Assembly: GCA_965240465.1 (NCBI GenBank)
Contig: OZ251219.1
Location: 160,001-224,000 of the forward strand
DNA length: 64,000 nucleotides
Direction: 5' to 3'
Source of the DNA: a bacterium
Lineage (GTDB): Bacteria > SAR324 > JACQKK01
The notes below the pieces were generated by a model, which saw only the letters and a program-made list of their open reading frames with translations, made no database searches and was not told the DNA's origin. Shown here piece by piece: positions 11,335 to 35,638 of the stretch; position 1 is the first letter of the stretch; the number at the start of each line of letters is the position of its first letter. The position numbers were made by a program, and so were the translations under genes.

Positions 11335-13827
11335 TTACTGGACTATGTTTTTAACATATTCCAGCTTCAGAGTAGTAAACCGTACCGCGGTAGCAATATG
11401 TTGCTGATGACCCCTTAGCACGTTGCTGTACCCTATTCCCTTGAGTCCTTCTCTTTTAAGCTGTTTTACAAACAATACCCTCAAGCTTTTTCCTCCCTCA
11501 ATGGCATATTCCAAGCGTAGCTCATTCAGCCCGGATATTGTTGGACATTGGGCCCGAACATCAAGCCATTCGTTTTTTGCTAAGGGTCCCCATTTTTTTA
11601 TGGGTACGCTATTGCATAACAACTGTATTTGCTGGCCATTGTGTAGATTTTCCAACCTCGCCCGCAATTGAACCTGCTTATTAGCCTGACCACTATCGGC
11701 AACGTGCCAATACAGGACAGTTGTTTTACCCAGGGAATATCGCTCATTTCCTACACTAGCGATGGTACCCAACCTTTTGGAACGGTACTTGAGTCCCTTA
11801 GCACTAATTCCATAAGGTCGTTCAAAAGCTACAAAATCAGCCTGACCCTCAAAAAAGACTACCGGAGGATTGTCAGCCAAGTTTTTTTTATGGCGACTAC
11901 GCCAATCATCTGTTAGCGGAACAAATGCCAGCTTGGTGCCTTTTTCTTTATTGGCTAGTAAGCGAGCCGTTGGCCGACCAAAACGATGATAAAATTCCTT
12001 AGCACAGCCAGTAGCCATCAAATCCTCGTGTACCTGAATACCAGCAAAGTCATGCTGTGATAAATGTAGTTCCAAGAAACGATATTCATCTTCCTTGAGA
12101 CAACGCCACTGACGACGAGGTTCTTTTATTCCCCCCTGCTGGCGTGCTTCTGGCCACAATAAATGCGGCCAGCCCTGTAAAATCAGTTTTTCCAATAGAC
12201 TGCTCGGGGGCCAGATATCCCATCCTCCTGCCAGACCTTTTTTGTCATGATGCCTGCGTAAAAAGCCAATATCCTGAGCCCAGAAATCATAAGAACACAT
12301 AGCACGAAATCCACGAATACGAAGACAAAATGGCCACTCAAAAATAGCCGTACCCTCTGTATTCTTAATAACATTTGCATAAGATACAATATCTTGACGG
12401 TCTACTCTGGTAAAAGAATGGGCATCTGGAAGTTCTGAGGCAAATGTATGAACCTCCGTTCCAGCTACCACCAACCAAATGGCAAAAACCCCCTTGTGGA
12501 CATGTCGCCAATCGATTTCCAAGGTTGGCAATAGTAGTAGCAATGGATAGAGCAATGTGCCTCGCCCTCCTACTCTTGTAAAACTGTGCCAGGGAAACAC
12601 CTCCAATAGCGGCAGTAAGCGCGGAATGTTGAATACTAACAGCAAAAAAAACACCCCCGAGGGCAACAGCCATACCCACGCAGGAGTAGACTCAGACGCA
12701 TTGGCCGAAGTATCAAAGGAGCCAGAATCTGTAGAAGACGACCTAAACCAACACCCCCGAACTGCCCACCACCAACCCATTATCCCCAGAGATAACAACG
12801 CCCAACCAGCCATCCCACTATAAAAATGCTCTCTTATGTCAAACAGATCTAATGAAAAGCTAGCTTTCCAATATGGAAGAAACAACCGCAATGGACTGGA
12901 AAACCAAAACCTAAAATAATGTCCCGAATCCGTACTAACAGGAGTAATGGCACTAACAATCTGCAAAACCAGCGGCACGTACAACCACCCCACTACAAAC
13001 ATTGCCCCCAGCAAAGAACAGTGCCAAAAAGGCCTGCCACGTACCTCAGACCATCCATGGAAACTTGCACGCAAGGCCAGCTTCCAGATGCTACCAGTAC
13101 CCAGCCATCGCCTGTGCCATACCCAGCCCACCCCAAATAACAATGTGATCACAAACGATGTTATATTCAATGCCCCTACATAGCCTAATCCATGCCCCAA
13201 TCCTAGCAACAGAAACAATCCACGTAACATTACCAGCTTCAATCGCAACTTCCCTTCCCGTACCAATTGACGAAACAAGAGAAAGTCTACCAATACCCCC
13301 AACTGTAGCCAGTGAATATATGCAATATTAAAATGAACGCTCTGCTTGTAACCAACATAAAAATTTAACAAAACAGATAAAAATGCAAAAACTCCTGCAC
13401 GATTATCACCATATACTCCCCGTAGTAGCCAAAAACTTCCTAAACACCCCACCAAAACGCTGATGGCTCCATAGTACAAGAACCACTCCCCCTCACCCAG
13501 CCACTTACCGCCCTGATACATCCATAATGCCTGCTCAAATGCCCAATCTACCAACATAACCCCCATATCATAAGGATATGTGTGTTCATCACCAGCAGGC
13601 ATCAATTGCGGAAATGGCCACCACTTGATCCAACGGGCAAAGTAATCCCAAGTAAAATAAGATTGTTGTACATCTGTTGCCCCCTCCCACGCCCACCCTA
13701 TTGGCAACCGATTGACAAAATCATGCCACCAAAAACAAAAACCCAACAACACGAACACCCAAATCGCTGTTCGCACCCCTCCCAAACTCTTACCCCCCTT
13801 AATCTTCTCTACCAAACTGGTTAACAT
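11335..13827 (-). CDS. Large polytopic membrane protein, possibly YfhO / GT-C glycosyltransferase-like
   Basis: 830 aa; many hydrophobic Trp/Gly-rich segments in the N-terminal ~460 aa, then a soluble domain. Family assigned from architecture only. Confidence 0.55.
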   Translation of the reverse strand: MLTSLVEKIKGGKSLGGVRTAIWVFVLLGFCFWWHDFVNRLPIGWAWEGATDVQQSYFTWDYFARWIKWWPFPQLMPAGDEHTYPYDMGVMLVDWAFEQALWMYQGGKWLGEGEWFLYYGAISVLVGCLGSFWLLRGVYGDNRAGVFAFLSVLLNFYVGYKQSVHFNIAYIHWLQLGVLVDFLLFRQLVREGKLRLKLVMLRGLFLLLGLGHGLGYVGALNITSFVITLLFGVGWVWHRRWLGTGSIWKLALRASFHGWSEVRGRPFWHCSLLGAMFVVGWLYVPLVLQIVSAITPVSTDSGHYFRFWFSSPLRLFLPYWKASFSLDLFDIREHFYSGMAGWALLSLGIMGWWWAVRGCWFRSSSTDSGSFDTSANASESTPAWVWLLPSGVFFLLLVFNIPRLLPLLEVFPWHSFTRVGGRGTLLYPLLLLLPTLEIDWRHVHKGVFAIWLVVAGTEVHTFASELPDAHSFTRVDRQDIVSYANVIKNTEGTAIFEWPFCLRIRGFRAMCSYDFWAQDIGFLRRHHDKKGLAGGWDIWPPSSLLEKLILQGWPHLLWPEARQQGGIKEPRRQWRCLKEDEYRFLELHLSQHDFAGIQVHEDLMATGCAKEFYHRFGRPTARLLANKEKGTKLAFVPLTDDWRSRHKKNLADNPPVVFFEGQADFVAFERPYGISAKGLKYRSKRLGTIASVGNERYSLGKTTVLYWHVADSGQANKQVQLRARLENLHNGQQIQLLCNSVPIKKWGPLAKNEWLDVRAQCPTISGLNELRLEYAIEGGKSLRVLFVKQLKREGLKGIGYSNVLRGHQQHIATAVRFTTLKLEYVKNIVQ

Positions 13828-14552: not shown

Positions 14553-15041
14553 CTAGCTACCCTTAAGTAAATTAGGCCAGTTTTTGTCTCCCTTTTTGAT
14601 ATTGCTATCACGACTTTCCAGCCAAGTAGTTTTCACTCCTGTGCTGTAATTAAGGTATAGTTTATTATTGTGGACCGTCCAGGCATGTGGGTCTATGGGA
14701 GCTACATAATTCCGAGAGACGGCAAAGGCACAATAGCCCCCGTATTGAGGGGCATATTGTTGAGGTTTTTTAAGGAATTTATCCCGATTTTCAGCCGAAT
14801 AAAAATTCCAAGTTGCCTTGTTCCATTTGGCTTGGAAGGCGTTTTTTCCCTTTACAGCTCGCTTTTCTGCGAAATATGCCACCGAGTCATAGCCACGGAT
14901 AGCTACTCCTCGGGATTGAAATACTGGCTCTATCGCTTGAGCATTATTTGGAATAATCAAGCTGTGAATAAAAGCCAAGCTGCATAATGTAAGAGTTAGT
15001 GTCAGCCATTTTCTATTGATACTGGGGGTCTGTGCAAACAT
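14553..15041 (-). CDS. Secreted YHS-domain protein (copy 2)
   Basis: Near-identical paralogue of 13923..14408 with the same motifs; GGAG upstream of the ATG. Confidence 0.88.
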   Translation of the reverse strand: MFAQTPSINRKWLTLTLTLCSLAFIHSLIIPNNAQAIEPVFQSRGVAIRGYDSVAYFAEKRAVKGKNAFQAKWNKATWNFYSAENRDKFLKKPQQYAPQYGGYCAFAVSRNYVAPIDPHAWTVHNNKLYLNYSTGVKTTWLESRDSNIKKGDKNWPNLLKGS

Positions 15042-24793: not shown

Positions 24794-24890
24794 ATGGCGA
24801 TATTAATGATATAAAAATCAATAAATTAAAAGATTCAAATATTTAGAGTCACAAGTAAAAAACTTTACCTACACAATGAATACGTCATAG

Positions 24891-24921
24891 TGAACACAGC
24901 ATATTGAACACAGCATATTGA
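24891..24921. repeat. Tandem direct repeat, 2 x 14 bp (TGAACACAGCATAT) plus partial third copy
   Basis: Read directly; lies in the divergent intergenic region between the ABC exporter and the methyltransferase. Confidence 0.9.
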
Positions 24922-25008: not shown

Positions 25009-26097
25009 ATGGAAGAATTTTTTCCCCTTACCTTTCATCAAAGTGCCTGGCAGCCAAGATTGATCAAGAGCCTGCAAGATAACTTGCAGAAAGGACAAAT
25101 ACCCAACTGGTGGATGTACCGAAGCACAAATCAATCAGCTTGTTGGCAAGAGTATAGTACTCATTACAGTCCTTGGAATTTGCAGCGAGAAAAATTGCTA
25201 CAAATGTACCGAGATGCCTGCATTTGGATTTCTCGCATGGTGGCAGACAGGCCTGTACAAGTAATTAGTCTAGGACCTGGTGACGGCACAAAAGATGGGA
25301 TGTTAATGAAAATCTTGTTGGATGGCGGGGTACGCAAGCCATCCGACATGATTTATACACCCTTAGACATTAGTGCAGAGTTGTGTATCCGTGCTACTAA
25401 TCGTGTTAAGTCCTTAGTGCCAGATATAATAACGAAACCGTTGGTGGTGCAAATAGAGCAATATCCGAGGCTTCGTCCTTGGTGGATGAGACATGAAGCC
25501 CAAAGTAATGTGCTTGGCCGTGCAATTAGGATTATCACCTGCTTTGGTATAATTCCAAATATGGATGTAGCACCTTTTCTAGATTGGCTCAAGCGAATGA
25601 TGCGTCCTAGCGATTGGCTGTTGATATCGGTAAATCTCTCTCCCCCGATTACAGAAGCTATCCCCCTTATTATGCCCCAATATGACAACTCCCTTGCCCG
25701 AGCCTGGTACAAAAGCGGCCTGGATTCTTTGGGAATCGGTCGACAACGAGTCAGCATGAATATTCATCCCGAAGCCCTAAATGAAGATGGAAGTGCTTGG
25801 CGAGTGTGCTTGAGCTTAAGTAGTCTTAATGCCAAACGCAGCCTAAAAATCACGCCATTTTCTTCTGAGATCATTGAGCTGGAATTGGAAAATCCTCTGC
25901 GGCTATTTTTTTCAAATAGATTTGAGTCCGAAACGTTTTCCTTCCTGATGAGGCAACAAGGTCTATCTACCTCAAAACAGTGGCTGGAAGAAAAGAAATG
26001 CTGGGAAGGGATATTTGCATCTAGAATTATCCCTACCGGGACGAAAGAAATTGCCCCCATTCTACCCGACTTAAAAAGCTCTTCCCGATCCAATTAG
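25009..26097 (+). CDS. SAM-dependent methyltransferase, divergent EgtD / L-histidine N(alpha)-methyltransferase-like
   Basis: VISLGPGDGTKD (motif I), YTPLDISAEL (motif II), CFGIIPNMD, DWLLIS, QYDN, LFFSNRF follow the EgtD-family layout. Substrate unknown. Confidence 0.72.
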   Translation: MEEFFPLTFHQSAWQPRLIKSLQDNLQKGQIPNWWMYRSTNQSACWQEYSTHYSPWNLQREKLLQMYRDACIWISRMVADRPVQVISLGPGDGTKDGMLMKILLDGGVRKPSDMIYTPLDISAELCIRATNRVKSLVPDIITKPLVVQIEQYPRLRPWWMRHEAQSNVLGRAIRIITCFGIIPNMDVAPFLDWLKRMMRPSDWLLISVNLSPPITEAIPLIMPQYDNSLARAWYKSGLDSLGIGRQRVSMNIHPEALNEDGSAWRVCLSLSSLNAKRSLKITPFSSEIIELELENPLRLFFSNRFESETFSFLMRQQGLSTSKQWLEEKKCWEGIFASRIIPTGTKEIAPILPDLKSSSRSN

Positions 26098-27040
26098 AGC
26101 GACCACGTACGAATTCCTCCCAGTCCAAAGGGTCGGCTCCCTCCAGCTGTACTCGCAGAAGCCTAACTCCACCTGAAAGAGCTCGCACACAGCCATCGGC
26201 ATGCAGCACCCCCATTGCTTCCATCGGAGGTTTAACCTCTTCCATAGCTAAGAAAAACAACCGCCGTCCTTCTATCCATCCTGAACAACCCGGCCAAGAC
26301 TTAAAAGCACGCATTTTTCTCAAAATTCCCTGGGTGTCCTCCCTAGAAAAATCTATCCAGCCATCTTCTTTCTTTAGACGCTTACACCAAGTGACTTCCC
26401 CTTCACACTGTTGAAAGCCTCCAGCTGTTCCGGTTGTCAATTTGGGAATCATCTCAGATAACAACCCTGCCGCTCGCTGGCTGAGCCTAGTACCTAACAC
26501 CAGTACGTCATCTTCTTTGCTTATTTTTTCTCTGGCTGTAGCCACCACTAATCCAGCATCTAATTTTTTTTGCATGCGTTGTAAGCTTACTCCTGTTTCT
26601 GAGTCGCCAGCTAGCAAAGCAGCTTGCATTGGACTAGCTCCTCTCCAACGAGGAAGCAAGGAAAAGTGCAGATTAAACATACCCAACTTTGCCATTTCCA
26701 AAACCCACCCCGGCAACAGACGACCATAAGCACACACCACTCCCAATTCCATTCCCCACTGCTCAAGCTGTTTGCCTACTATCGTACGCTCTAATTCACC
26801 GGGTCCTAACCATGGCAACCCTAAGCGTTCAGCTTCCCGATGAACTGCACAAGGGCGATACCTTGGCTTTATTTTTATATTCTGTTCGCTTTTGTGCTTC
26901 TTGCCTCCCCTGCCAGCTACACGCGGAGGTTGAGTAACTACTCCCACCAACCGTACCTGATCATGCTCAGCTAATGAATTCAATGCAGGTACTGCCAATT
27001 CGGGACTGCCAAAAAACACCGTCCGCACTTGATTGTTCAT
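26033..27040 (-). CDS. fmt: Methionyl-tRNA formyltransferase
   Basis: VFFGSPELA, VVTQPPRVAGRG, VCAYGRLLP, NLHFSLLPRWRGASP, ETGVSL..M..KLDAG, RAFKSWPG. Confidence 0.94.
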   Translation of the reverse strand: MNNQVRTVFFGSPELAVPALNSLAEHDQVRLVGVVTQPPRVAGRGGKKHKSEQNIKIKPRYRPCAVHREAERLGLPWLGPGELERTIVGKQLEQWGMELGVVCAYGRLLPGWVLEMAKLGMFNLHFSLLPRWRGASPMQAALLAGDSETGVSLQRMQKKLDAGLVVATAREKISKEDDVLVLGTRLSQRAAGLLSEMIPKLTTGTAGGFQQCEGEVTWCKRLKKEDGWIDFSREDTQGILRKMRAFKSWPGCSGWIEGRRLFFLAMEEVKPPMEAMGVLHADGCVRALSGGVRLLRVQLEGADPLDWEEFVRGRSNWIGKSFLSRVEWGQFLSSR

Positions 27041-27047
27041 GGGTTCG

Positions 27048-28379
27048 CTATTTTTTATCCTTTTTCTTTACCTTCCCACCATTTTTACTAGTACGCATTC
27101 GCAAGGCTTCAGCCTGTGAGAATAGATGCTCGGACTCAGAAAGATGTATAATCTTCTCACTTTCCTGCTCAAAACGTGCCCTTGAGTACCCAAGCACGGG
27201 AGAACGCTTGATAAAATCACCTACCCCCAAGGAAGATGAAAATCTCGCCCGCCCGCCTGTAGGAACCAAATGATTAGTACCACCAAAACAATAACCCACC
27301 GACTGCGGAGTATGCGGGCCCAAGAATATCGCCCCTGCCTGACAAACATGTGCCAATTGTGAGAAGGGGTCTGCTGTCAGTAACTCCAAGTTTGCAGGTG
27401 CCAGCTCATTGATCACCTCCAAGCCGGCTGCTAAGTCTTTCACTACTACAATACCGGATCCATTGGCAAAAGAGGCTTTAATTATATCTGCTCTGGGTAA
27501 GGTGGGAATCAATTCTTCCAAACAAAGAGTCACTGCTTGTGCCTGTTTCTGGCTGGTGGTCACCAACATTGCACGAGCCTCATCATCTTGTTCAGCTTGA
27601 GCAAGTAGATCGCCAGCCAAGTATCCCGCCGGGATATCTCCTCGGGTACACAGAATGACAAGCTCACTGGGCTCTGTGAGTAAATCAACTCCCACCTCGC
27701 CATATATTTGGCGTTTAGCTTCGGCAACCCCGCGATTGCTAGGACCCACAATTTTGTCCACCCGTGGAATACTCTCTGTTCCCCATGCCAGAGCTGCTAT
27801 CGCCTGCACTCCTCCTACCGCGTATATATGCTCCAATCCCAGCAATGCTCCAGCTGCCAAAATATTACTATGTGGCAAGCCATCTTTACCGGGGGATGCC
27901 GCTACTAAGATCTCCTTTACCCCTGCTAGCTGGGCTGGCACTACCCCCATAAACAAGCTCGCAGGACCACCACCACCCCGACCATCAGGTACACACACCC
28001 CAACCCTATCCAATGGCGATACCTTCCATCCTACCACGCTACCATCCGAGCAAAACTCAAACCGACTATCTTCACATTGACGTGAATGAAATTGCTCAAT
28101 GTTGTTGAGTGCCTCAATCCAAACGTCTTTCAATACTGGGTTCAGCCCAGACAGGGCTGCTTCCATCAGGTCTACTCCCACCAGCAAAGAAGGAACCTCA
28201 ACCTCATCAAAACGGCGGGTATATTCCAATAATGCCGCATCCCCCTTGATACGCACCCTTTCTAATACATCCCGCACATGGGCTTGGATTTCCTCATTTT
28301 CTACCCTAGGTCGCTTGTCTAAATGCTCCCAGTATTCTTCCAACGAAGAAAAAATAGCCACCAATCCAATTTCTGACAT
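27048..28379 (-). CDS. hisD: Histidinol dehydrogenase homologue, predicted catalytically inactive
   Basis: Colinear with HisD over the full length (GDAALLEYTRRFD, VGGVQAIAALAWGTESIPRVDKIVGP, PSE, AGAIFLG, GTNHLVPTGGRARFSSSLGV) but with Zn and catalytic residues substituted. ATG 28379 follows GAGGAAG. Confidence 0.9.
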   Translation of the reverse strand: MSEIGLVAIFSSLEEYWEHLDKRPRVENEEIQAHVRDVLERVRIKGDAALLEYTRRFDEVEVPSLLVGVDLMEAALSGLNPVLKDVWIEALNNIEQFHSRQCEDSRFEFCSDGSVVGWKVSPLDRVGVCVPDGRGGGGPASLFMGVVPAQLAGVKEILVAASPGKDGLPHSNILAAGALLGLEHIYAVGGVQAIAALAWGTESIPRVDKIVGPSNRGVAEAKRQIYGEVGVDLLTEPSELVILCTRGDIPAGYLAGDLLAQAEQDDEARAMLVTTSQKQAQAVTLCLEELIPTLPRADIIKASFANGSGIVVVKDLAAGLEVINELAPANLELLTADPFSQLAHVCQAGAIFLGPHTPQSVGYCFGGTNHLVPTGGRARFSSSLGVGDFIKRSPVLGYSRARFEQESEKIIHLSESEHLFSQAEALRMRTSKNGGKVKKKDKK

Positions 28380-28425
28380 CAGATTACTCTTCCTCAAGAT
28401 ATCTAAAGGCTAACTCTCAAACCGA

Positions 28426-29265
28426 TCAGCGCTTGCTTCTTGACGATTTGCCATAGCGTTGATCCAGAAATTGTAGCCGACGAGTAGCATCATCGGTCCA
28501 AGCACCGCCTGAGGCAACCAACTCAGCGTAGAAACGGCGTGCCCGCAGAGGTTCTCCCACATCCTCCAAACAACTGGCCAGCAACCAGCGAACATCTGCC
28601 ACTCTACGATATTGGGGCTGATTATCCAGCAGGGCGAACAGAGGCTCCATCGCCCCTTCACACTGGTGCAGTAAGAACAAAGCTTGACCCTGATAATGAA
28701 GCACCTGAGATAAACGCACGTCTTTGGGGTAACGCCTACGAAAATCTGCTAAATCACGCACCCCTACATCCAGTTGCCCGTTGATAATCTGAGACAACCC
28801 ACGGCGAAATAATTTATCTGCTACCGTCACATCAGGAACACCGGCCAACGGACTTCTCAACAGCTGCTCCATCACTGTGATCTGCAACCGCAATTTATCA
28901 ACCTCATCACGCCAAACCACTTGGGATTTAGCATGTTCTTGTAACTCATTCTTAAATTCTTGTTCCAACCTTAAAGCCTCTATCTCCATACGCTCCAAGG
29001 TTTCACGCAAAGCTTTATTTTCTGCGGTCACCTCCCTTAAAAGATTTTCCAACAGCTGTAAGCGATTTTCTATAGCATTAAGCTTACGATTAGACTGGGC
29101 TTGAACAGGAACTGCTAATGATATCAGCCCCATTGATAACACCAACATCCCCAGCAAGAACATTCTAAAGCAACCTTCAAAAGGCTTAACTTGCCGATAC
29201 GGAGGCAAGTACCTCTGTAGAAAGGGAACGATATTTCTAATCAATCTGCTATTACAATAGGACAT
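28426..29265 (-). CDS. cpoB: Tol-Pal-associated coiled-coil/TPR periplasmic protein (CpoB/YbgF-like)
   Basis: Signal region ending VQA, long coiled coil, TPR-like C-terminus (FRRRYPKD..LSQVLHYQGQALF); directly downstream of tolB. Confidence 0.72.
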   Translation of the reverse strand: MSYCNSRLIRNIVPFLQRYLPPYRQVKPFEGCFRMFLLGMLVLSMGLISLAVPVQAQSNRKLNAIENRLQLLENLLREVTAENKALRETLERMEIEALRLEQEFKNELQEHAKSQVVWRDEVDKLRLQITVMEQLLRSPLAGVPDVTVADKLFRRGLSQIINGQLDVGVRDLADFRRRYPKDVRLSQVLHYQGQALFLLHQCEGAMEPLFALLDNQPQYRRVADVRWLLASCLEDVGEPLRARRFYAELVASGGAWTDDATRRLQFLDQRYGKSSRSKR

Positions 29266-29310
29266 ACGAACTCACAAAATTAAAGAATATCAACCGAAAC
29301 AAGTCCTATC

Positions 29311-30738
29311 TCAAAACAAGCTGCCTGCTTCCCAAGAAGGACTATTCTCTTCTATTCCTTTTCCAGTATTGGTAACGCGACGCAAACCACTACCATCAAT
29401 AGATGCCACGTACAGCTTAAAATCTCCGCTACGTCTGGAAGAAAATACAATCTGACGGCCATCAGGAGACCATTCTGATTGTTCACAGTTGTACCTACCT
29501 TGAGTGATAGCACGAATATTTTGACCAAGTTTGTCCATGACATAAATCTGATCTACCCCCCGCACACGACGAGTGAACATGATATCTTCTCCATCAGGAC
29601 TCCATCTGGGATCTGCACTGTAAGAATTATTGAAGGTCAAACGCAAATTGCGTCTGCTTTGTAGATCTAGCAGATATATTTGGGGCGCACCAGAACGAAA
29701 AGACACGTACACTAGCTGATGGTTTGCAGGATGCCAATCAGGCTGAAATTCAATACCTATCCTAGTAGTGATGTGTTGAGGTTTGGGTTTTCTTTTATTG
29801 AGGTTAAAAAAGAACAAATCAGTACCTGCTCCAACGCTAATGACTACTGCTAAACGACCATCTGATGAAAAAGAACCGCCATTGTTCAAGCTGCCAAAAT
29901 CGGTTAAATAGCCACTTCGCCTGCCTTTTTTGCCTAGCTTTTGGTAATAGATGCGGCTACCACGGAGAGAAATTTCGGTATAGACCAAGCTTTGAGCATC
30001 AGACGATAAGCGCGGTAGAATGGCTATATTGTCATTGCGAGATATAATTTTGGGCTCTGCTTGATGAGTATCTGTCGCTGCAATCACCAAATTTTCTCCT
30101 CTTTCTTTCATGGCAAAAACAATGCTAGAACCCAGGATCCCTGTTTTACCGGTCACATTTCTAGCCATCTGATTTACCAGAACTATAATATTCTTTTCTT
30201 TGAGAGCTTTTCTCAGGGACAAATTACTTTCAAACAAAAGTTGCCCACCGGGTCCCAAATCAAGCACTTTCAACTGAAACTGACCATCTTTTACTTCAAC
30301 CTTTATACTTAAGTCTGCCCGCGAAGAATCCTTTACTCCGCAATACTTTTCGCTTCCCATTATAATGCTGAATAAGCCACTCCAACACAAATTTCTCTCC
30401 AGCAGTTTTTCCAGCTGTCTAGCTGAAGAAACATCCTGTTTATCATTAAATACTACCTCAAGAAGCACTACCAAACGTGCAAAATCCAAACCCTTTATCA
30501 CAATGTCTCCAGCTGGATCTTGACTACTAGAAGGAAAACCATAAGACCGCGGTTCCTTAGAATTAGCTTTTGCTCCAGACTCAGCCTTCAATGAGCCTGA
30601 TATAATCACCAGTAGCAATACTGTCAACCATGTCCGGGATATCAGATCAAAAATAATCTTCCCCCCAGGACTGCGACAAACAAAGGCCTTTTTTCTCAGT
30701 AAGAACCTAATCGCTATGGGAAAAAAATTACACTGCAT
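29311..30738 (-). CDS. tolB: TolB-like beta-propeller protein
   Basis: Repeated PD40-type units (PDWHP, PRWSPDG, SEWSPDG, SPSW), SFRSGAPQIY; tol cluster context. Confidence 0.88.
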   Translation of the reverse strand: MQCNFFPIAIRFLLRKKAFVCRSPGGKIIFDLISRTWLTVLLLVIISGSLKAESGAKANSKEPRSYGFPSSSQDPAGDIVIKGLDFARLVVLLEVVFNDKQDVSSARQLEKLLERNLCWSGLFSIIMGSEKYCGVKDSSRADLSIKVEVKDGQFQLKVLDLGPGGQLLFESNLSLRKALKEKNIIVLVNQMARNVTGKTGILGSSIVFAMKERGENLVIAATDTHQAEPKIISRNDNIAILPRLSSDAQSLVYTEISLRGSRIYYQKLGKKGRRSGYLTDFGSLNNGGSFSSDGRLAVVISVGAGTDLFFFNLNKRKPKPQHITTRIGIEFQPDWHPANHQLVYVSFRSGAPQIYLLDLQSRRNLRLTFNNSYSADPRWSPDGEDIMFTRRVRGVDQIYVMDKLGQNIRAITQGRYNCEQSEWSPDGRQIVFSSRRSGDFKLYVASIDGSGLRRVTNTGKGIEENSPSWEAGSLF

Positions 30739-30823
30739 AAGTTACTCCATAAATCTTTAATCTCTCAAAAAATAGCCAAAAAATATTGCCTCCATAAAAA
30801 ATTAAGGCTGAATATTTATAATA

Positions 30824-31477
30824 TTAAGGGCTACAAGTCCAAAGCATCACTACATAATTTGAAGAAAACAATCTTGGCAACGGGGGGAAAATAGTGTTGT
30901 TAATACGTGCTAAACAAACCAGCTTATCAAAGTTTTCATTGTCGCTGGGCTGTATAAGAGAAATTTCCTGCTTCTGACCATCTTTTCCGACTCGCACCTT
31001 CACTACCGCTCGCAAATGAGGAGAAAACTCAGCTGGAAAATCATAATTCTCTTGCACCCGATCGCTAACTTCCTCCACATACGACCGCCAAGCTAGCAAG
31101 GCTGCCCGATCACGGAAGCGCACATTACCCTCAATCCTGAAATCAGTTCCTGAAGATAACACCGGTGCGTTCTTTTTTTTCACCTTAACTACTTCAGGTG
31201 ATAAAACACTGGGTAGCGGTGGAGTACCAGCATCAGCTGGATACAAAGCCTCTTTTGGTTTATTAGGCCCGGTAGATGATAATCTTTTGCCACGTTTGGC
31301 AGGCAACGACACCAATTTAACCGTATAAGCATTTGGCAACTCAATCTGCGGCGACCGAGGCGAAAAAACCAACACCAGCAAAAACAAACCATGCAAAAAC
31401 ACAGAAGCAACTCCTGCCAGCACGATGATACGTTTGTTCATGCCAGATTCCATCAATCCCCCTTTCATCAGCATCAA
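30824..31477 (-). CDS. tolA: Short TolA/TonB-like energy transducer
   Basis: TM anchor with SxxxH (ASVFLHGL), Pro/Lys-rich linker, TonB-C-like end (SDNENFD...FPPLP); lies between tolR and tolB. Confidence 0.75.
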   Translation of the reverse strand: MMLMKGGLMESGMNKRIIVLAGVASVFLHGLFLLVLVFSPRSPQIELPNAYTVKLVSLPAKRGKRLSSTGPNKPKEALYPADAGTPPLPSVLSPEVVKVKKKNAPVLSSGTDFRIEGNVRFRDRAALLAWRSYVEEVSDRVQENYDFPAEFSPHLRAVVKVRVGKDGQKQEISLIQPSDNENFDKLVCLARINNTIFPPLPRLFSSNYVVMLWTCSP

Positions 31478-31911
31478 GGTTGCTCAATCACTAACCCCAT
31501 CTGCTCAACCCGCAAGCGACGTAACTCAGCCATAACCTGAGTCACAGATCCATAAGACAACCTTTCGTCGGCACGCAACAATGCTATACCAGTCGGATTC
31601 CGCAATTTCCAACGACGAACCCGGGAACGGAATTTCTCTCTCGCACGCCCATTTTCTAATTTTCCTAAGGTCTCTGAACCCACTGCCACTACCCCAGCCC
31701 TATTCACACTCACTACTAATCTTGCCGACTTGGTATTCTCCGCTGGGATATTTGCTTTTGGCAACTGTACCTGCAGTGAATACGCTGCCAACGGTGCTGT
31801 AATCATGAAAATCACCAACAGCACCAACAACACATCCACCAATGGAACAATATTTATTTCCGATATTTCATCATCCATAGCATCATTTTTCTGTACCTCG
31901 TCAAATAACAT
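31474..31911 (-). CDS. tolR: TolR/ExbD family protein
   Basis: SEINIVPLVDVLLVLLVIFMITAP, LRADERLSYGSV. Confidence 0.92.
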   Translation of the reverse strand: MLFDEVQKNDAMDDEISEINIVPLVDVLLVLLVIFMITAPLAAYSLQVQLPKANIPAENTKSARLVVSVNRAGVVAVGSETLGKLENGRAREKFRSRVRRWKLRNPTGIALLRADERLSYGSVTQVMAELRRLRVEQMGLVIEQP

Positions 31912-31914
31912 TAG

Positions 31915-32592
31915 CTACACCCCTCTTTCCAATTGATTGAGTACCTGCAACATAAAATAACGCCCCTCTTCCAGATGCCCCCGCAGTATCCCCTGAAATA
32001 TATTGTACGCTACCAAAGCTGGCACTGCCACAAACAACCCCGCAGCCGTAGCCACTAATGCCTCAGAAATCCCCGGTGCCACCACCGACAAACTTACCAA
32101 ACCCGAAAGCCCAATAGAAGTAAATGCTCGTATTACCCCTAACACCGTCCCCAATAAACCCACATAAGGCGATGTACTAGCACTCAAAGACAGAAATATC
32201 ATTCCACGCCGTAACCGCCGTAGCTGCATTCCAGCAGCCCCTTCCATCGCCCGTACCACACATTCCCTTATCCGTTCAGGCTCATCTTTCAAGCGATGGT
32301 ACGCCTTGCCGAATTCCTGCCAGCCAGCTACATACATCCCCGCTAGTAACGACCCAGACTTGAGGGCTTCGTTCATCAGTTGCTGACGATAATCATTCGC
32401 CTCCTCAGGAGTCATATGACTTAGCATTTGAAATCGTTTTGCAAATTTTTTGTTTTGAATCCTGATCCAGGAAAAAACCACCACCTTAGCAAAAACCAAC
32501 GCCCAGCTACAAACACTGACAACCCCCAACAATAACAATATTAACAGCCCAGCCGTGTTCTCAGACAAGCCATCTGTCAGAATTCTCCACAT
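31915..32592 (-). CDS. tolQ: TolQ/ExbB/MotA family proton channel
   Basis: SPYVGLLGTVLGVI, VVAPGISEALVATAAGLFVAVPA. Confidence 0.92.
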   Translation of the reverse strand: MWRILTDGLSENTAGLLILLLLGVVSVCSWALVFAKVVVFSWIRIQNKKFAKRFQMLSHMTPEEANDYRQQLMNEALKSGSLLAGMYVAGWQEFGKAYHRLKDEPERIRECVVRAMEGAAGMQLRRLRRGMIFLSLSASTSPYVGLLGTVLGVIRAFTSIGLSGLVSLSVVAPGISEALVATAAGLFVAVPALVAYNIFQGILRGHLEEGRYFMLQVLNQLERGV

Positions 32593-32634
32593 CAGTAACC
32601 ACCTCCTTCCCCCTTTTCATTATTCCCCCTGTGG

Positions 32635-33174
32635 TTACTCTTCGGTAAATTCCACTCGCCGATTTTTCCGAAAAGCACTCTCACTGGAGCCAGTACTTAT
32701 CGGACGCTCTTCTCCAAAGCTAACGGTACGAACCCTTTTCGCTGCCACCCCTGCCGCTAACAAAGCCCGCTTTACCGCATTAGCACGACGATGACCTAAG
32801 GCTAAATTATAAGCATTAGTACCGCGCTCATCTGCATGCCCTTCTAGAACCAATTTGACAGAAGCATTAGCACCCAATCTCTTTACTGCAAAATTAACAA
32901 CATCATTCGTACCAGGTCGTAACCTTGCACTATCAAAACCGAACAATACCACCCGATATTCATCTTGAAGTTCATATCTACCCTTCCCTTCTTTAGTAGA
33001 TTTCCCAGGTTCAGCGGCACCTTTTACGCTACAACCTCCAAACAGTAATCCCACTACCATAAATACAAATAGCGACCATCTCACAGATTTATTACCCATC
33101 ATAACCAAAATCGGACCTATACGTGCTCCTGTTTTTGAAAATCGCTCTGTTATAACACCCATTATTTTCTCCAT
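32635..33174 (-). CDS. pal: Peptidoglycan-associated lipoprotein (OmpA-C domain)
   Basis: Lipobox LFGGC, FGFDS, EGHADERGTNAYNLALGHRRA, VSFGEERP, NRRVEF. The true start may be ATG 33102 or 33099. Confidence 0.92.
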   Translation of the reverse strand: MEKIMGVITERFSKTGARIGPILVMMGNKSVRWSLFVFMVVGLLFGGCSVKGAAEPGKSTKEGKGRYELQDEYRVVLFGFDSARLRPGTNDVVNFAVKRLGANASVKLVLEGHADERGTNAYNLALGHRRANAVKRALLAAGVAAKRVRTVSFGEERPISTGSSESAFRKNRRVEFTEE

Positions 33175-33370
33175 ATCATCGTGCTAAAAATATTTGGTTT
33201 GCATTTTACGCCAGCCTCCAGAGGTCATTGTTTCATGTTATTTAAAGATAAGCAATTAAATATCAAGAAAAATTTACTATTGTTTTCAGTACACTGTCCC
33301 TTATTTTGTTAGCCTTCTGCTAAATTGTACCTAGTTAGTACCTCGTCCCTTATTACATGCAAAAACAGCT

Positions 33371-34222
33371 ATGCAAACAATTCCTTGGAGCGTTTATTTG
33401 GATGGATCTCTACCCGGTCCCCTTAACATGGCCAGAGATGAATACCTCCTTCAATGTGCTCTCAAACATCAGCGAGCCTTCCTACGTTTGTATAGCTGGG
33501 ACATAACCACCCTCTCTCTGGGACGTTCTCAAAACCCGACCCGTGACATAAACCTTAAAGCTTGTTCGGAAAATAACATCCCCCTTGTCAGACGCATAAC
33601 CGGCGGACGCACTGTCATACACGGACAAGACCTTACCTACACTATCGCGGCTCCAAGAAATATATTTTCACAATCTGACCAAACCGGTCTCATGGATATC
33701 TACCGGCATATCAGCCAAATATTCTTTCATTTTTTTAGGTCTGTGGGCATCAATATCCAAATTCAGCCCTATACCCCTAAGCAACGTGCCAGATTGTCCA
33801 GCTCCATCTGCTTTGCCACTCCATCGGCCTTTGAATTATTATACCAAGGCAAGAAATTACTCGGCAGTGCCCAAAGAATGCTCCCTCACACCTTCCTACA
33901 ACATGGCTCTCTTCCTCTTTACCCCCAACACGAGCTCATCAAGCTCCTTTTTCTATCTCCCGAAAGAAAACTGATCCACAATAAAATGACCGACCTTTCT
34001 TCCATCAGTTCATCAAATCTTGCCAAAAGTACCTCCCAGCTACAAAAATTGCTCCTGAAAAGCTTTGAGAAAGTTTTAGGCATCCGTTTTTCGTTATCTC
34101 AGTGGCAAACCCATGACCACCAAGCCATCCAACAATTGCTACCCAATTATCCCCTTCTAAACTCTACAAACCTCCTGCCAGTCAACTCCGTGGGAACATC
34201 GCATACCACGCACTCCCCCTAA
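33371..34222 (+). CDS. Lipoate-protein ligase / octanoyltransferase family (LplA/LipM-like)
   Basis: NMARDE, LRLYSW, SLGRSQ, VRRITGGRTVIH, CF, GKKLLGSAQR, LQHGS. Confidence 0.9.
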   Translation: MQTIPWSVYLDGSLPGPLNMARDEYLLQCALKHQRAFLRLYSWDITTLSLGRSQNPTRDINLKACSENNIPLVRRITGGRTVIHGQDLTYTIAAPRNIFSQSDQTGLMDIYRHISQIFFHFFRSVGINIQIQPYTPKQRARLSSSICFATPSAFELLYQGKKLLGSAQRMLPHTFLQHGSLPLYPQHELIKLLFLSPERKLIHNKMTDLSSISSSNLAKSTSQLQKLLLKSFEKVLGIRFSLSQWQTHDHQAIQQLLPNYPLLNSTNLLPVNSVGTSHTTHSP

Positions 34223-34246: not shown

Positions 34247-35422
34247 CTAATATCTTGGCAGTGAGGGGTCTATCTCCTTAGCCCAGCTGTCTATTCCCCC
34301 TTCTACACTGACAGCATTGAGGAAACCTTGTTCCTGCATTATACGCACCGCAGTTTCTGAGCGAATGCCATGATGACAATATACAAAAATCTTTTCCTCC
34401 TTAGGCAATAAATCCAAACCATTCGGCAAATCACCAACCGGAGCCAACCGTGCCCCCTTGATGCGTACCATGTCCCATTCATGAGGCTCTCTCACATCCA
34501 CCAGAATGACATTTCCCTTGCCCATGGATTGCTGAAGTTCTCTCACTGTTGCAGTTGGAACAGGAGTTTCCTCTGTTTTTTTCTCAGCAGTGTCCGCCTG
34601 ACTGGCATTCACAAATGATTCATAATCCATAAAACCTCTCAGACTGGGGTTATCTCCGCAAAGCACACACTTCTTGTTTTTTGCCATTTGCAGGGTTCGG
34701 ATGCTCATATCTAAGGCATCATACAGAATCAACCTATTTTTCATGACCTTGCCAATACCCACGATAAACTTTATCGCCTCGGTGGACATCAGCAAACCCA
34801 CCACGCCTGGGAGCACGCCTAAGACACCTGCTGTGTTTCAATTCGGTGCCAGGCTAGGCGGCGGCGGGACCGCGTACAAACAACGATAACAAGCCCCTCC
34901 CTCACGCGGAATAAACAAACTAACTTGTCCTTCAAATCTAAAAATAGATCCTGATATCAATGGCAAACCCGCGAACCACGCCGCATCGTTCACTAAATAT
35001 CTAGTTTCAAAATTGTCCGAACAATCCAGCACTAAATCCCAATCAGCAAAGATAGACTCCACATTCTCCACCGTTAAACGCTCCCGATACTCCTTCACCT
35101 CTACATAAGGATTCAGAGCCTTGATGCGACGCACCATTGATTCTGACTTTGGCCGGCCAACACTGGCGGTGTCATGGGCAATCTGCCGATTGAGGTTGCT
35201 TTCTTCTACCAAGTCGTTATCCACCACTCCTATAGTACCCACTCCTGAAGCTGCCAAATAAATCCCCACTGGCGAGCCTAATCCACCTGCCCCAATGTAC
35301 AACACCCGTGCCTGCTTCAAACGCAACTGCCCCGCTACTCCCACCTCCGGCAAAATTAAATGACGATTGTATCGCCGGCTCTCATCAGGCGACAACATTT
35401 CATCTGGTGTTCTATCCGACAT
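34247..35422 (-). CDS. moeB: MoeB/ThiF-family adenylyltransferase with C-terminal rhodanese (MoeZ-type); in-frame TGA at 34838-34840, probable selenocysteine (U195 of 391 aa)
   Basis: ORFs 34838..35428 and 34247..34816 share one frame: CYRCLYAVPPPPSLAPN-TGA-NTAGVLGVLPG. Also GAGGLG, SNLNRQ, DCSDNFETRY, CVLC, and rhodanese DVREPHE...YCHHGIRS. ATG 35422 follows GGAGAG. Confidence 0.88.
34786..34836 (-). promoter_or_regulatory. Candidate bacterial SECIS hairpin 3' of the in-frame UGA
   Basis: Manual pairing: ACA-CAGCAGG (+2..+11) with UUUGCUG-A-UGU (+42..+52), plus an upper stem CCCA/UGGG closing a G-initiated loop GGCGUGG at +31. Alternative folds are possible; not computed. Confidence 0.4.
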
Positions 35423-35638
35423 CCACACTCTCCAAAGACCTAATTCATCCCATCTATCCCTGCAAAAACCCCCCCTCCACAGTACTCATTCCCTTGTTTT
35501 AATACAAGCACTAAAATTATTTCCACCCCCAGGTAAAGTCATTGATTTTCTATATCTTTAGGTGAATAATTCACTATATGCATGTATGCATGTGCTGTCA
35601 ATACCGTCCATTCAGCAATAAATTCCCAGAAATTAACC

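Follow-up and report, generated by a model that had tools for sequence, protein, structure and literature searches.

Why should a bacterial gene that has lost the active site of its enzyme still present a full-length, unbroken reading frame? This question is raised by hisD at 27048..28379 (reverse strand) in a 64,000-nucleotide stretch of the SAR324 contig OZ251219.1, referred to here as the window. The gene lies between cpoB and fmt and encodes a homologue of histidinol dehydrogenase in which most of the zinc ligands and both catalytic residues are replaced. In the original prediction, made from the sequence of the window, this was taken as a sign that the HisD fold had been kept for a non-catalytic role. 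Comparison with orthologues and with other genes of the same genome leads us to favour, with some reserve, a different answer, namely that hisD is a relaxed relic with no new function, whose frame stays open by chance or owing to its coupling to fmt. The kind of object is already known: it may be classed as an orphaned pathway gene or as an intact-ORF (open reading frame) pseudogene, or perhaps as a pseudoenzyme. In what follows G000 denotes the genome of the window and G001 a genome of the same genus.

The predicted uninterrupted 443-codon HisD frame was borne out by translation, by profile matches and by structure modelling. The frame runs without internal stop to TAG at 27048-27050, and its start is placed at the ATG at 28379 in preference to an extension of the frame to TTG at 28397. 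The Shine-Dalgarno (SD)-like motif GAGGA (28391..28395, reverse strand) stands 11 nt before this ATG, and 46 nt separate the start from the cpoB stop codon (TGA, 28426-28428). The product aligns with positions 2-410 of the 411 in the PF00815 profile (402.6 bits, E 2.7e-120), and also clears the cut-off of the NCBIfam hisD equivalog TIGR00069 (376.2 bits vs 243.8), dead as it appears to be. Among solved structures the closest to it are HisD chains from bacteria (9lbv_A, E 3.3e-87; E. coli 1k75_A, E 8.7e-67). An AlphaFold2 model built from an 11-row alignment has a mean pLDDT of 81.3, but two loops of the active site, 232-236 and 366-383, score less than 50. In a Foldseek search with this model HisD structures ranked first (E 9e-36) at a TM score of only about 0.53, as expected because a single chain of a domain-swapped dimer was compared. 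The closest protein among 5.8 billion is 66% identical, and the closest database proteins bear the name 'SAR324 cluster bacterium'. Apart from one internal indel of +3 nt, which is in frame, no stop, frameshift or truncation was found, so that the gene lacks the disrupted frame of a classical pseudogene.

Substitutions were placed through a HMMER alignment to E. coli HisD (1k75_A), and chain positions were counted by hand. According to the available excerpts of PMC11382572 and PMC5585171, the zinc ion of HisD is held by two histidines, one aspartate and one glutamine. In the E. coli enzyme these are Gln259, His262, Asp360 and His419, the last contributed by the partner subunit; only Gln259 is kept in the G000 protein. 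His262 is replaced by Q264 (codon CAA, 27588..27590), Asp360 by Y363 (TAT, 27291..27293; the next codon is also changed, Y364C) and His419 by Q422 (CAG, 27114..27116). The catalytic pair Glu326-His327, in which His327 serves as general base and water is activated by Glu326 (PMC11382572, excerpt), has become A329-N330 (GCA AAC, 27390..27395). All of these codons are on the reverse strand. The five replacements H262Q, E326A, H327N, D360Y and H419Q had been called from motifs; the alignment to 1k75_A places them at exactly the same codons, and the roles that had been assigned to these residues agree with the two sources. Each of the five codons had also been said to lie one base from a canonical one, which is true with respect to some canonical codon, whereas in comparison with the codons actually used in G001 three differ by one nucleotide and two by two. 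Residues retained from this region are Q261 (E. coli Gln259), H370 (His367) and E417 (Glu414). How severe such changes can be is illustrated by the related enzyme HpsN, where, in the same excerpt of PMC11382572, mutation of the glutamate or the histidine lowered kcat/KM 580-fold and 240-fold, respectively, and mutation of the aspartate abolished all detectable activity.

The NAD site is altered as well. In the pyrophosphate loop (27984..27995, reverse strand) C129 stands for Tyr130 and D132 for Gly133 (contacts as named in the excerpt of PMC5585171). The predicted changes of PGG to PDG, of GPGN to GPSN and of AGPSE to TEPSE are all present in the alignment: in the GPGN loop (27729..27740, reverse strand) S214 replaces Gly and G217 the adenine-stacking aromatic residue (Tyr253 of the Medicago enzyme, MtHDH), and T235-E236 replace A-G of the AGPSE loop (27672..27677, reverse strand), Ser238 being retained. 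Among the nine MtHDH contacts to NAD (Phe96, Asp97, Tyr166, Gly169, Gly170, Gln228, Asn251, Tyr253 and Ser277) six are kept, as F57, D58, G133, Q192, N215 and S238, and the equivalents of Tyr166, Gly169 and Tyr253 are lost (C129, D132 and G217). The in-frame repeat (GGT)4, one codon longer than the canonical A-V-Y of the NAD loop that it replaces, occupies 27966..27977 (reverse strand); a compensated frameshift, considered for this single divergent stretch, was rejected on account of the repeat. Since it has kept only one of four zinc ligands and neither acid/base residue, and several of its NAD contacts are replaced, the G000 protein is, as predicted from these substitutions, almost certainly without histidinol dehydrogenase function.

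The enzyme also has no pathway to serve. The G000 assembly is a single contig of 1,599,138 bp with a marker completeness of 83.6%. The window had been described as containing no other his gene, and this extends to the whole genome for the families searched: a single PF00815 match was found genome-wide, so that there is no second hisD, and profile searches gave no match to HisG or to imidazoleglycerol-phosphate dehydratase (IGPD). No His_biosynth match (HisA/F) rose above the cut-off, the best (18.3 bits) lying inside thiG. The rest of the pathway was thus not found in so far as HisG, IGPD and HisA/F represent it (hisC, hisE and the phosphatase were not searched). Each of these three families is present in all four relatives tested, which comprise G001 and three members of the family. 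In G001, itself one contig of about 1.7 Mb, hisG, hisI, hisA, hisF, hisB and hisH are kept at three loci (hisI-hisG, hisA-hisF and hisB-hisH), between genes whose orthologues are retained in G000. The flanks of two of these loci are now adjacent in G000 and the third locus is rearranged. The gaps left in place of hisI-hisG (G000 C1:842633-843068, 435 bp, GC 0.37) and hisB-hisH (C1:984864-985523, 659 bp) exceed the median gap length of 88 bp, yet nothing recognisable of the genes is left in them; a tblastn search at E<=10 with the six proteins of G001 gave no match at the corresponding sites. The G000 genome measures 1.6 Mb, as against 2.3-5.2 Mb in members of the family. Judged by this gene content, hisD is the orphaned last member of a deleted histidine pathway.

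The position of the gene is inherited. Upstream, on the same strand, profile matches identify a run of pal (OmpA family), tolQ, tolR, a tolA-like gene, tolB and cpoB (28426..33174), and directly downstream lies fmt, for methionyl-tRNA formyltransferase (26033..27040, reverse strand). The gap between hisD and fmt is the heptanucleotide CGAACCC (27041..27047); no SD-like motif occurs within 5-10 nt of the fmt ATG, the nearest candidate, AAGGA, standing 17 nt upstream. Gene order in G001 matches that in G000 (two ABC transporters, a PF10017 methyltransferase gene on the other strand, fmt, hisD, cpoB and tolB), with a hisD-fmt gap of 8 nt that contains GGAG. The HisD of G001, 66-67% identical to that of G000, is canonical throughout, keeping QAEH, APEH, GDY, the C-terminal His, PGG and AGPSE. 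In the two further family members annotated, hisD follows an OmpA-family gene (and precedes hisB and hisH) in one and a TPR gene in the other. The place between cpoB and fmt and the 7-nt gap were therefore correctly described, but as a hint of a new role the tol-pal setting is uninformative, because the position was inherited from a working enzyme. Counts of promoters and terminators in 25800-33600 did not exceed those in shuffled sequence (10 vs 11.3 and 9 vs 6.8), and Tandem Repeats Finder (TRF) detected no tandem repeat inside hisD.

Several features of the same neighbourhood may be recorded here. In G001 tolB is separated from the tolA-like gene by an insertion of two genes for RCC1-repeat proteins (433 and 457 aa; L033 13030-15946). 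Such genes are absent from this place in G000, whose related copies lie elsewhere, near C1:1366 kb and 1389 kb. The intergenic DNA that separates the ABC transporter gene from the methyltransferase gene carries 2.6 copies of a 14-nt unit (24886-24921). The methyltransferase gene itself (25009-26097, forward strand) is convergent with fmt and encodes a 362-aa protein with a weak match (E 9e-11) to PF10017, the histidine-specific, EgtD-like SAM (S-adenosylmethionine) methyltransferases; it occupies the same place in G001, with 54% identity. A histidine-modifying enzyme may thus be retained in a genome unable to make histidine.

Rates of change were compared in a HisD set of 39 sequences below 85% identity, taken from 120 homologues among the matches listed. 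Differences between G000 and G001 were polarised with the 37 outgroups; 425 of the 443 positions were covered, gapped columns being skipped. Four other genes of the window (Lpd, CoaBC, Fmt and ThiG), with orthologues from the same relatives, served as controls. Left out of the HisD counts were the G015 sequence with its in-frame TAG, the partial G003 locus and all order-level loci, and left out of the controls were Lpd hits of 39% identity or less (paralogues), the split G005 CoaBC locus, and order-level and partial Fmt loci; the coverage filter applied to the HisD and control alignments removed no rows. The TAG is the only one in the hisD orthologue of G015, a family member (G015:C114:313-1587), and may be an error of sequencing or the mark of a second hisD in decay.

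Where the other 38 sequences all agree, G000 HisD deviates privately 22 times, G001 HisD twice and no other sequence more than 7 times. Derived changes in G000 and G001, respectively, numbered 22 and 2 at the 107 invariant columns, 14 and 2 at 71 columns of 90-99% conservation, 14 and 7 at 102 columns of 70-90%, 11 and 3 at 61 columns of 50-70%, and 15 in each genome at 84 columns below 50%. The G000 changes thus amount to 14-21% in every conservation class, whereas those of G001 climb from 2% to 18% with variability. In family-level alignments, 28 of 173 invariant HisD columns were changed in G000 and 3 in G001; the corresponding figures were 11 and 4 of 196 for Lpd, 9 and 7 of 140 for CoaBC, 5 and 1 of 73 for Fmt, and 4 and 4 of 110 for ThiG, or 29/519 and 16/519 for the pooled controls. 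Maximum-likelihood terminal branches under LG+G4 gave the same picture: the HisD branch measured 0.517 in G000 and 0.118 in G001 (ratio 4.4), compared with 0.223 and 0.153 for Lpd (1.46), 0.356 and 0.301 for CoaBC (1.18), 0.477 and 0.406 for Fmt (1.18), and 0.173 and 0.140 for ThiG (1.24). The evolution of hisD in G000 is several-fold faster than that of its G001 counterpart, and it also outpaces the other G000 genes compared. Replacements at invariant HisD columns are also as radical as random mutation would make them (mean BLOSUM62 -0.55 vs -0.62 expected). Relative both to orthologues (4.4 vs 1.18-1.46) and to genes of the same genome (28/173 vs 29/519), this is the pattern of relaxed selection. 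The suggestion that relatives be searched for the same substitutions was answered in the negative: none of the 38 non-redundant relatives shares the dead state and the same-genus orthologue is canonical, so in these alignments the erasure of the active site is private to G000. A singleton of this kind is as expected of recent decay; for the same reasons neither conservation of the dead state nor selection on it can be demonstrated. Between the G000 and G001 proteins, at 67% amino-acid identity, synonymous sites are probably saturated.

The comparisons of sequence described so far demonstrate where hisD came from, that its pathway was lost and that it has accelerated, and they predict that catalysis died. 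A course of events that would account for them starts from an ancestor with a normal histidinol dehydrogenase at this cpoB-hisD-fmt position, as still found in G001. Deletion of the six upstream-pathway genes would have left hisD without substrate, and with selection relaxed, replacements would have accumulated throughout the protein, most densely in the pocket for zinc, histidinol and NAD, until catalysis was lost. As to why the frame is open, we infer that a premature stop or frameshift in hisD would lower the expression of fmt, through lost translational coupling or Rho polarity. Such a cost is conceivable because the gap to fmt is only 7 nt, fmt has no usable SD-like motif and Rho is present in G000. 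The frame may still be open also because the relaxed period was short. The product presumably has no new job. Annotated pseudogenes have been found somewhat more commonly in the 3' half of operons, according to an excerpt of PMC3061063.

The even spread of changes over conservation classes suggested uniform neutral decay, an explanation that was dropped since splitting the positions by their proximity to ligand contacts showed unevenness. The pocket was defined as the residues within three positions in sequence of 20 ligand contacts named in the excerpt of PMC5585171, mapped through alignments. Derived changes in G000 affect 10 of the 20 contacts and 66 of 405 other positions (p 0.0008), a contrast that is ascertained because the finding was chosen for its pocket changes. 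After removal of the 24 motif positions that had been inspected, the contrast was 16/68 vs 50/333 (p 0.10), and 10/37 vs 16/117 (p 0.08) when only columns of at least 90% conservation were counted. Pocket columns gave a G000/G001 branch ratio of 12.2, and the remainder of HisD one of 3.3, the controls lying at 1.18-1.46. Replacement in excess of the baseline amounted to about 22% inside the pocket and about 6% outside. The quality of the replacements (BLOSUM62) was compared inside and outside the pocket with the expectation for a mixture, in a test without power. A gain of cysteines as a new metal site was also considered (5 of 76 changes) and set aside as not significant (P 0.08-0.13).

Several observations weigh against a relic whose frame is open through chance or coupling. 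When hisD of G000 or G001 was mutated at random under four mutation spectra, with only stops scored, the frame stayed without a stop with a probability of 0.04-0.17 after 60-80 hits (about 9-12% of amino acids changed; 0.08-0.16 at about 10%), 0.02-0.05 after 100 hits (about 15%) and 0.004-0.014 after 140 hits (about 20%), the stop-to-missense ratio in hisD being 0.044-0.049. An open frame after neutral decay is mildly improbable, and frameshifts would reduce the chances further. Coupling to fmt, which would relieve this difficulty, is an idea drawn from inspection of the junction. The other six his genes were erased without a trace from a compact genome, about 0.89 of which is covered by ORFs of at least 90 aa and which has only 9 gaps above 1 kb. 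In the family-level alignment, invariant columns near contacts were changed more often (18/61) than those elsewhere (10/112; p 0.0009), and the latter rate is indistinguishable from that of the four controls (29/519; p 0.19). Codon mutability differs between pocket and rest by just 1.01-1.09 fold, so it explains little of the contrast. This uneven spread suggests continued selection on the scaffold and is not what selection in cis alone would predict. The signal is weakened by the ascertainment and by the scaffold's own 3.3-fold acceleration, as against 1.2-1.5-fold in the controls.

These points are what an exapted pseudoenzyme would lead one to expect, that is, a HisD fold under purifying selection for a non-catalytic role (as scaffold, binding partner or metal-free ligand binder) in which only the old pocket was released or remodelled. 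We regard this as possible though rather doubtful. It would fit the full-length frame, whose sole internal indel is in frame, and the SD-like motif retained before hisD. It would also fit the distribution of the roughly 40 changes above the G001 baseline: sites near contacts make up 22% of the total and take 20 of these changes (P about 1e-4). At hydrophobic-core positions just 1 of 18 changes, that of the NAD-stacking residue, is radical, where 1.7-4.2 were expected, although this test, like that with BLOSUM62, lacks power (P 0.07-0.48). On the other hand, zinc, substrate and NAD contacts were lost together, so that no candidate ligand is left, the operon context is inherited, and conservation cannot be shown from one genome. 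Thus, of the original proposal of a fold retained to serve a non-catalytic role, the loss of catalysis stands, together with the threefold denser changes in the pocket and the open frame in a compact genome; retention for a role does not follow from a singleton that is accelerated as a whole and sits at an inherited position. A variant, which we put forward only tentatively, is that HisD had acquired an additional, non-catalytic role in the ancestor, connected with the conserved location of its gene after tol-pal/cpoB and before fmt, and that in G000, when catalysis had become useless, the pocket was stripped (His/Asp/Glu to Gln/Asn/Tyr/Ala) and the dimeric scaffold stayed under selection. It is very improbable that the protein is still an enzyme, with Gln, Asn, Tyr and Cys in place of His, Asp and Glu serving a different reaction that is metal-independent or differently metallated. 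Pocket residues do persist (Q261, E263, S238, N369/H370, E417, Q192, N215 and F57/D58), and two of the five cysteines gained, C129 and C364, lie in the pocket. But both acid/base residues, three zinc ligands and three NAD contacts are gone together, the gain of cysteines is not significant, the replacements at invariant columns look random in quality, both active-site loops are modelled with low confidence, and there is no family of relatives carrying this pocket. We give hardly any credence to an artefact of assembly or sequencing, or to a working second hisD in unassembled DNA. The incomplete marker set would allow for it, but the assembly is one 1.6-Mb contig in which genes on either side of the lost his genes have been kept, and 76 amino-acid changes cannot be read errors. 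One sample yielded contigs from two runs, at word depths of 167 and 75, that show 0 differences over 25900-29400, although they may be the assembly's own source and are then not independent support. The relaxed relic is thus the explanation that we retain.

Elsewhere in the window, a ThiF/MoeB-plus-rhodanese gene (34247-35428, reverse strand), which reads as two ORFs, is one frame with a single in-frame TGA (34838-34840, in AAT TGA AAC) just past its CxxC motif. Its relatives have what we take to be a conserved active-site Cys at this position, and the TGA could be a selenocysteine codon or a nonsense mutation; a SECIS-like fold in the 74 nt that follow it was no better than in shuffled sequences (z 0.53). 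Two ORFs, of 830 aa (11335-13827, reverse strand) and 162 aa (14553-15041, reverse strand), had no Pfam match at E<=1e-5.

Because the ORF clears the cut-off of the NCBIfam equivalog, G000 will be credited in annotation pipelines and metabolic models with a histidinol dehydrogenase, almost certainly wrongly, and the organism should instead count as a histidine auxotroph. G000 and G001, two genomes of about 1.6-1.7 Mb within one genus, constitute a clean natural experiment: one has a complete pathway, the other no more than its last enzyme, dead but at an unchanged locus. From the pair the order of pathway loss can be read, six genes being gone without a trace and one left inside its operon, and one can also ask of it whether a frame that is of no use may be held open by its place in an operon. 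In our literature search, judged by titles and the beginnings of abstracts and with most subscription journals outside its coverage, no catalytically dead HisD was found. If the scaffold is under selection, HisD would be a new fold among known bacterial pseudoenzymes and this protein the first HisD pseudoenzyme, within one genus beside a still-working orthologue.

Compared with characterised HisD (EC 1.1.1.23; PF00815, TIGR00069; structures 1k75/1kae, P. aeruginosa 9lbv/8xsq and Medicago 5vlb-d), the G000 protein is alike in full length and, by sequence and model, in fold, and it is 66-67% identical to a canonical orthologue at the same chromosomal position. It differs in the loss of H262, D360, H419, E326/H327, Tyr130, Gly133 and the adenine-stacking aromatic residue, and in that its genome has no upstream pathway. 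HpsN, the (R)-DHPS-3-dehydrogenase (PDB 8v35, 8wwe), belongs to the same fold family (E about 3e-50) and is a functional offshoot, which demonstrates that the fold is able to take another substrate. However, in HpsN the Glu/His pair, the Asp and the zinc site are intact, and there is a G-R-Y-A/S-H motif of its own (PMC11382572, excerpt); the G000 protein has none of these, the corresponding stretch being G-R-G-G-G.

With selection-retained bacterial pseudoenzymes the G000 protein shares an enzyme fold with replaced catalytic residues in an open frame. An example of a retained pseudoenzyme is HisZ, a dead paralogue of HisRS. Pseudoenzymes of this class are conserved across several genomes or occur beside a working copy, whereas the HisD of G000 is a singleton and the only copy. 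Intact-ORF ('cryptic') pseudogenes and orphaned pathway genes occur in reduced bacterial genomes, and G000 hisD resembles them as the sole survivor of its pathway, in its lineage-specific acceleration and in the reduced genome that carries it. It differs from them in having no disruption after about 40 excess replacements and in the clustering of its changes in the active site.

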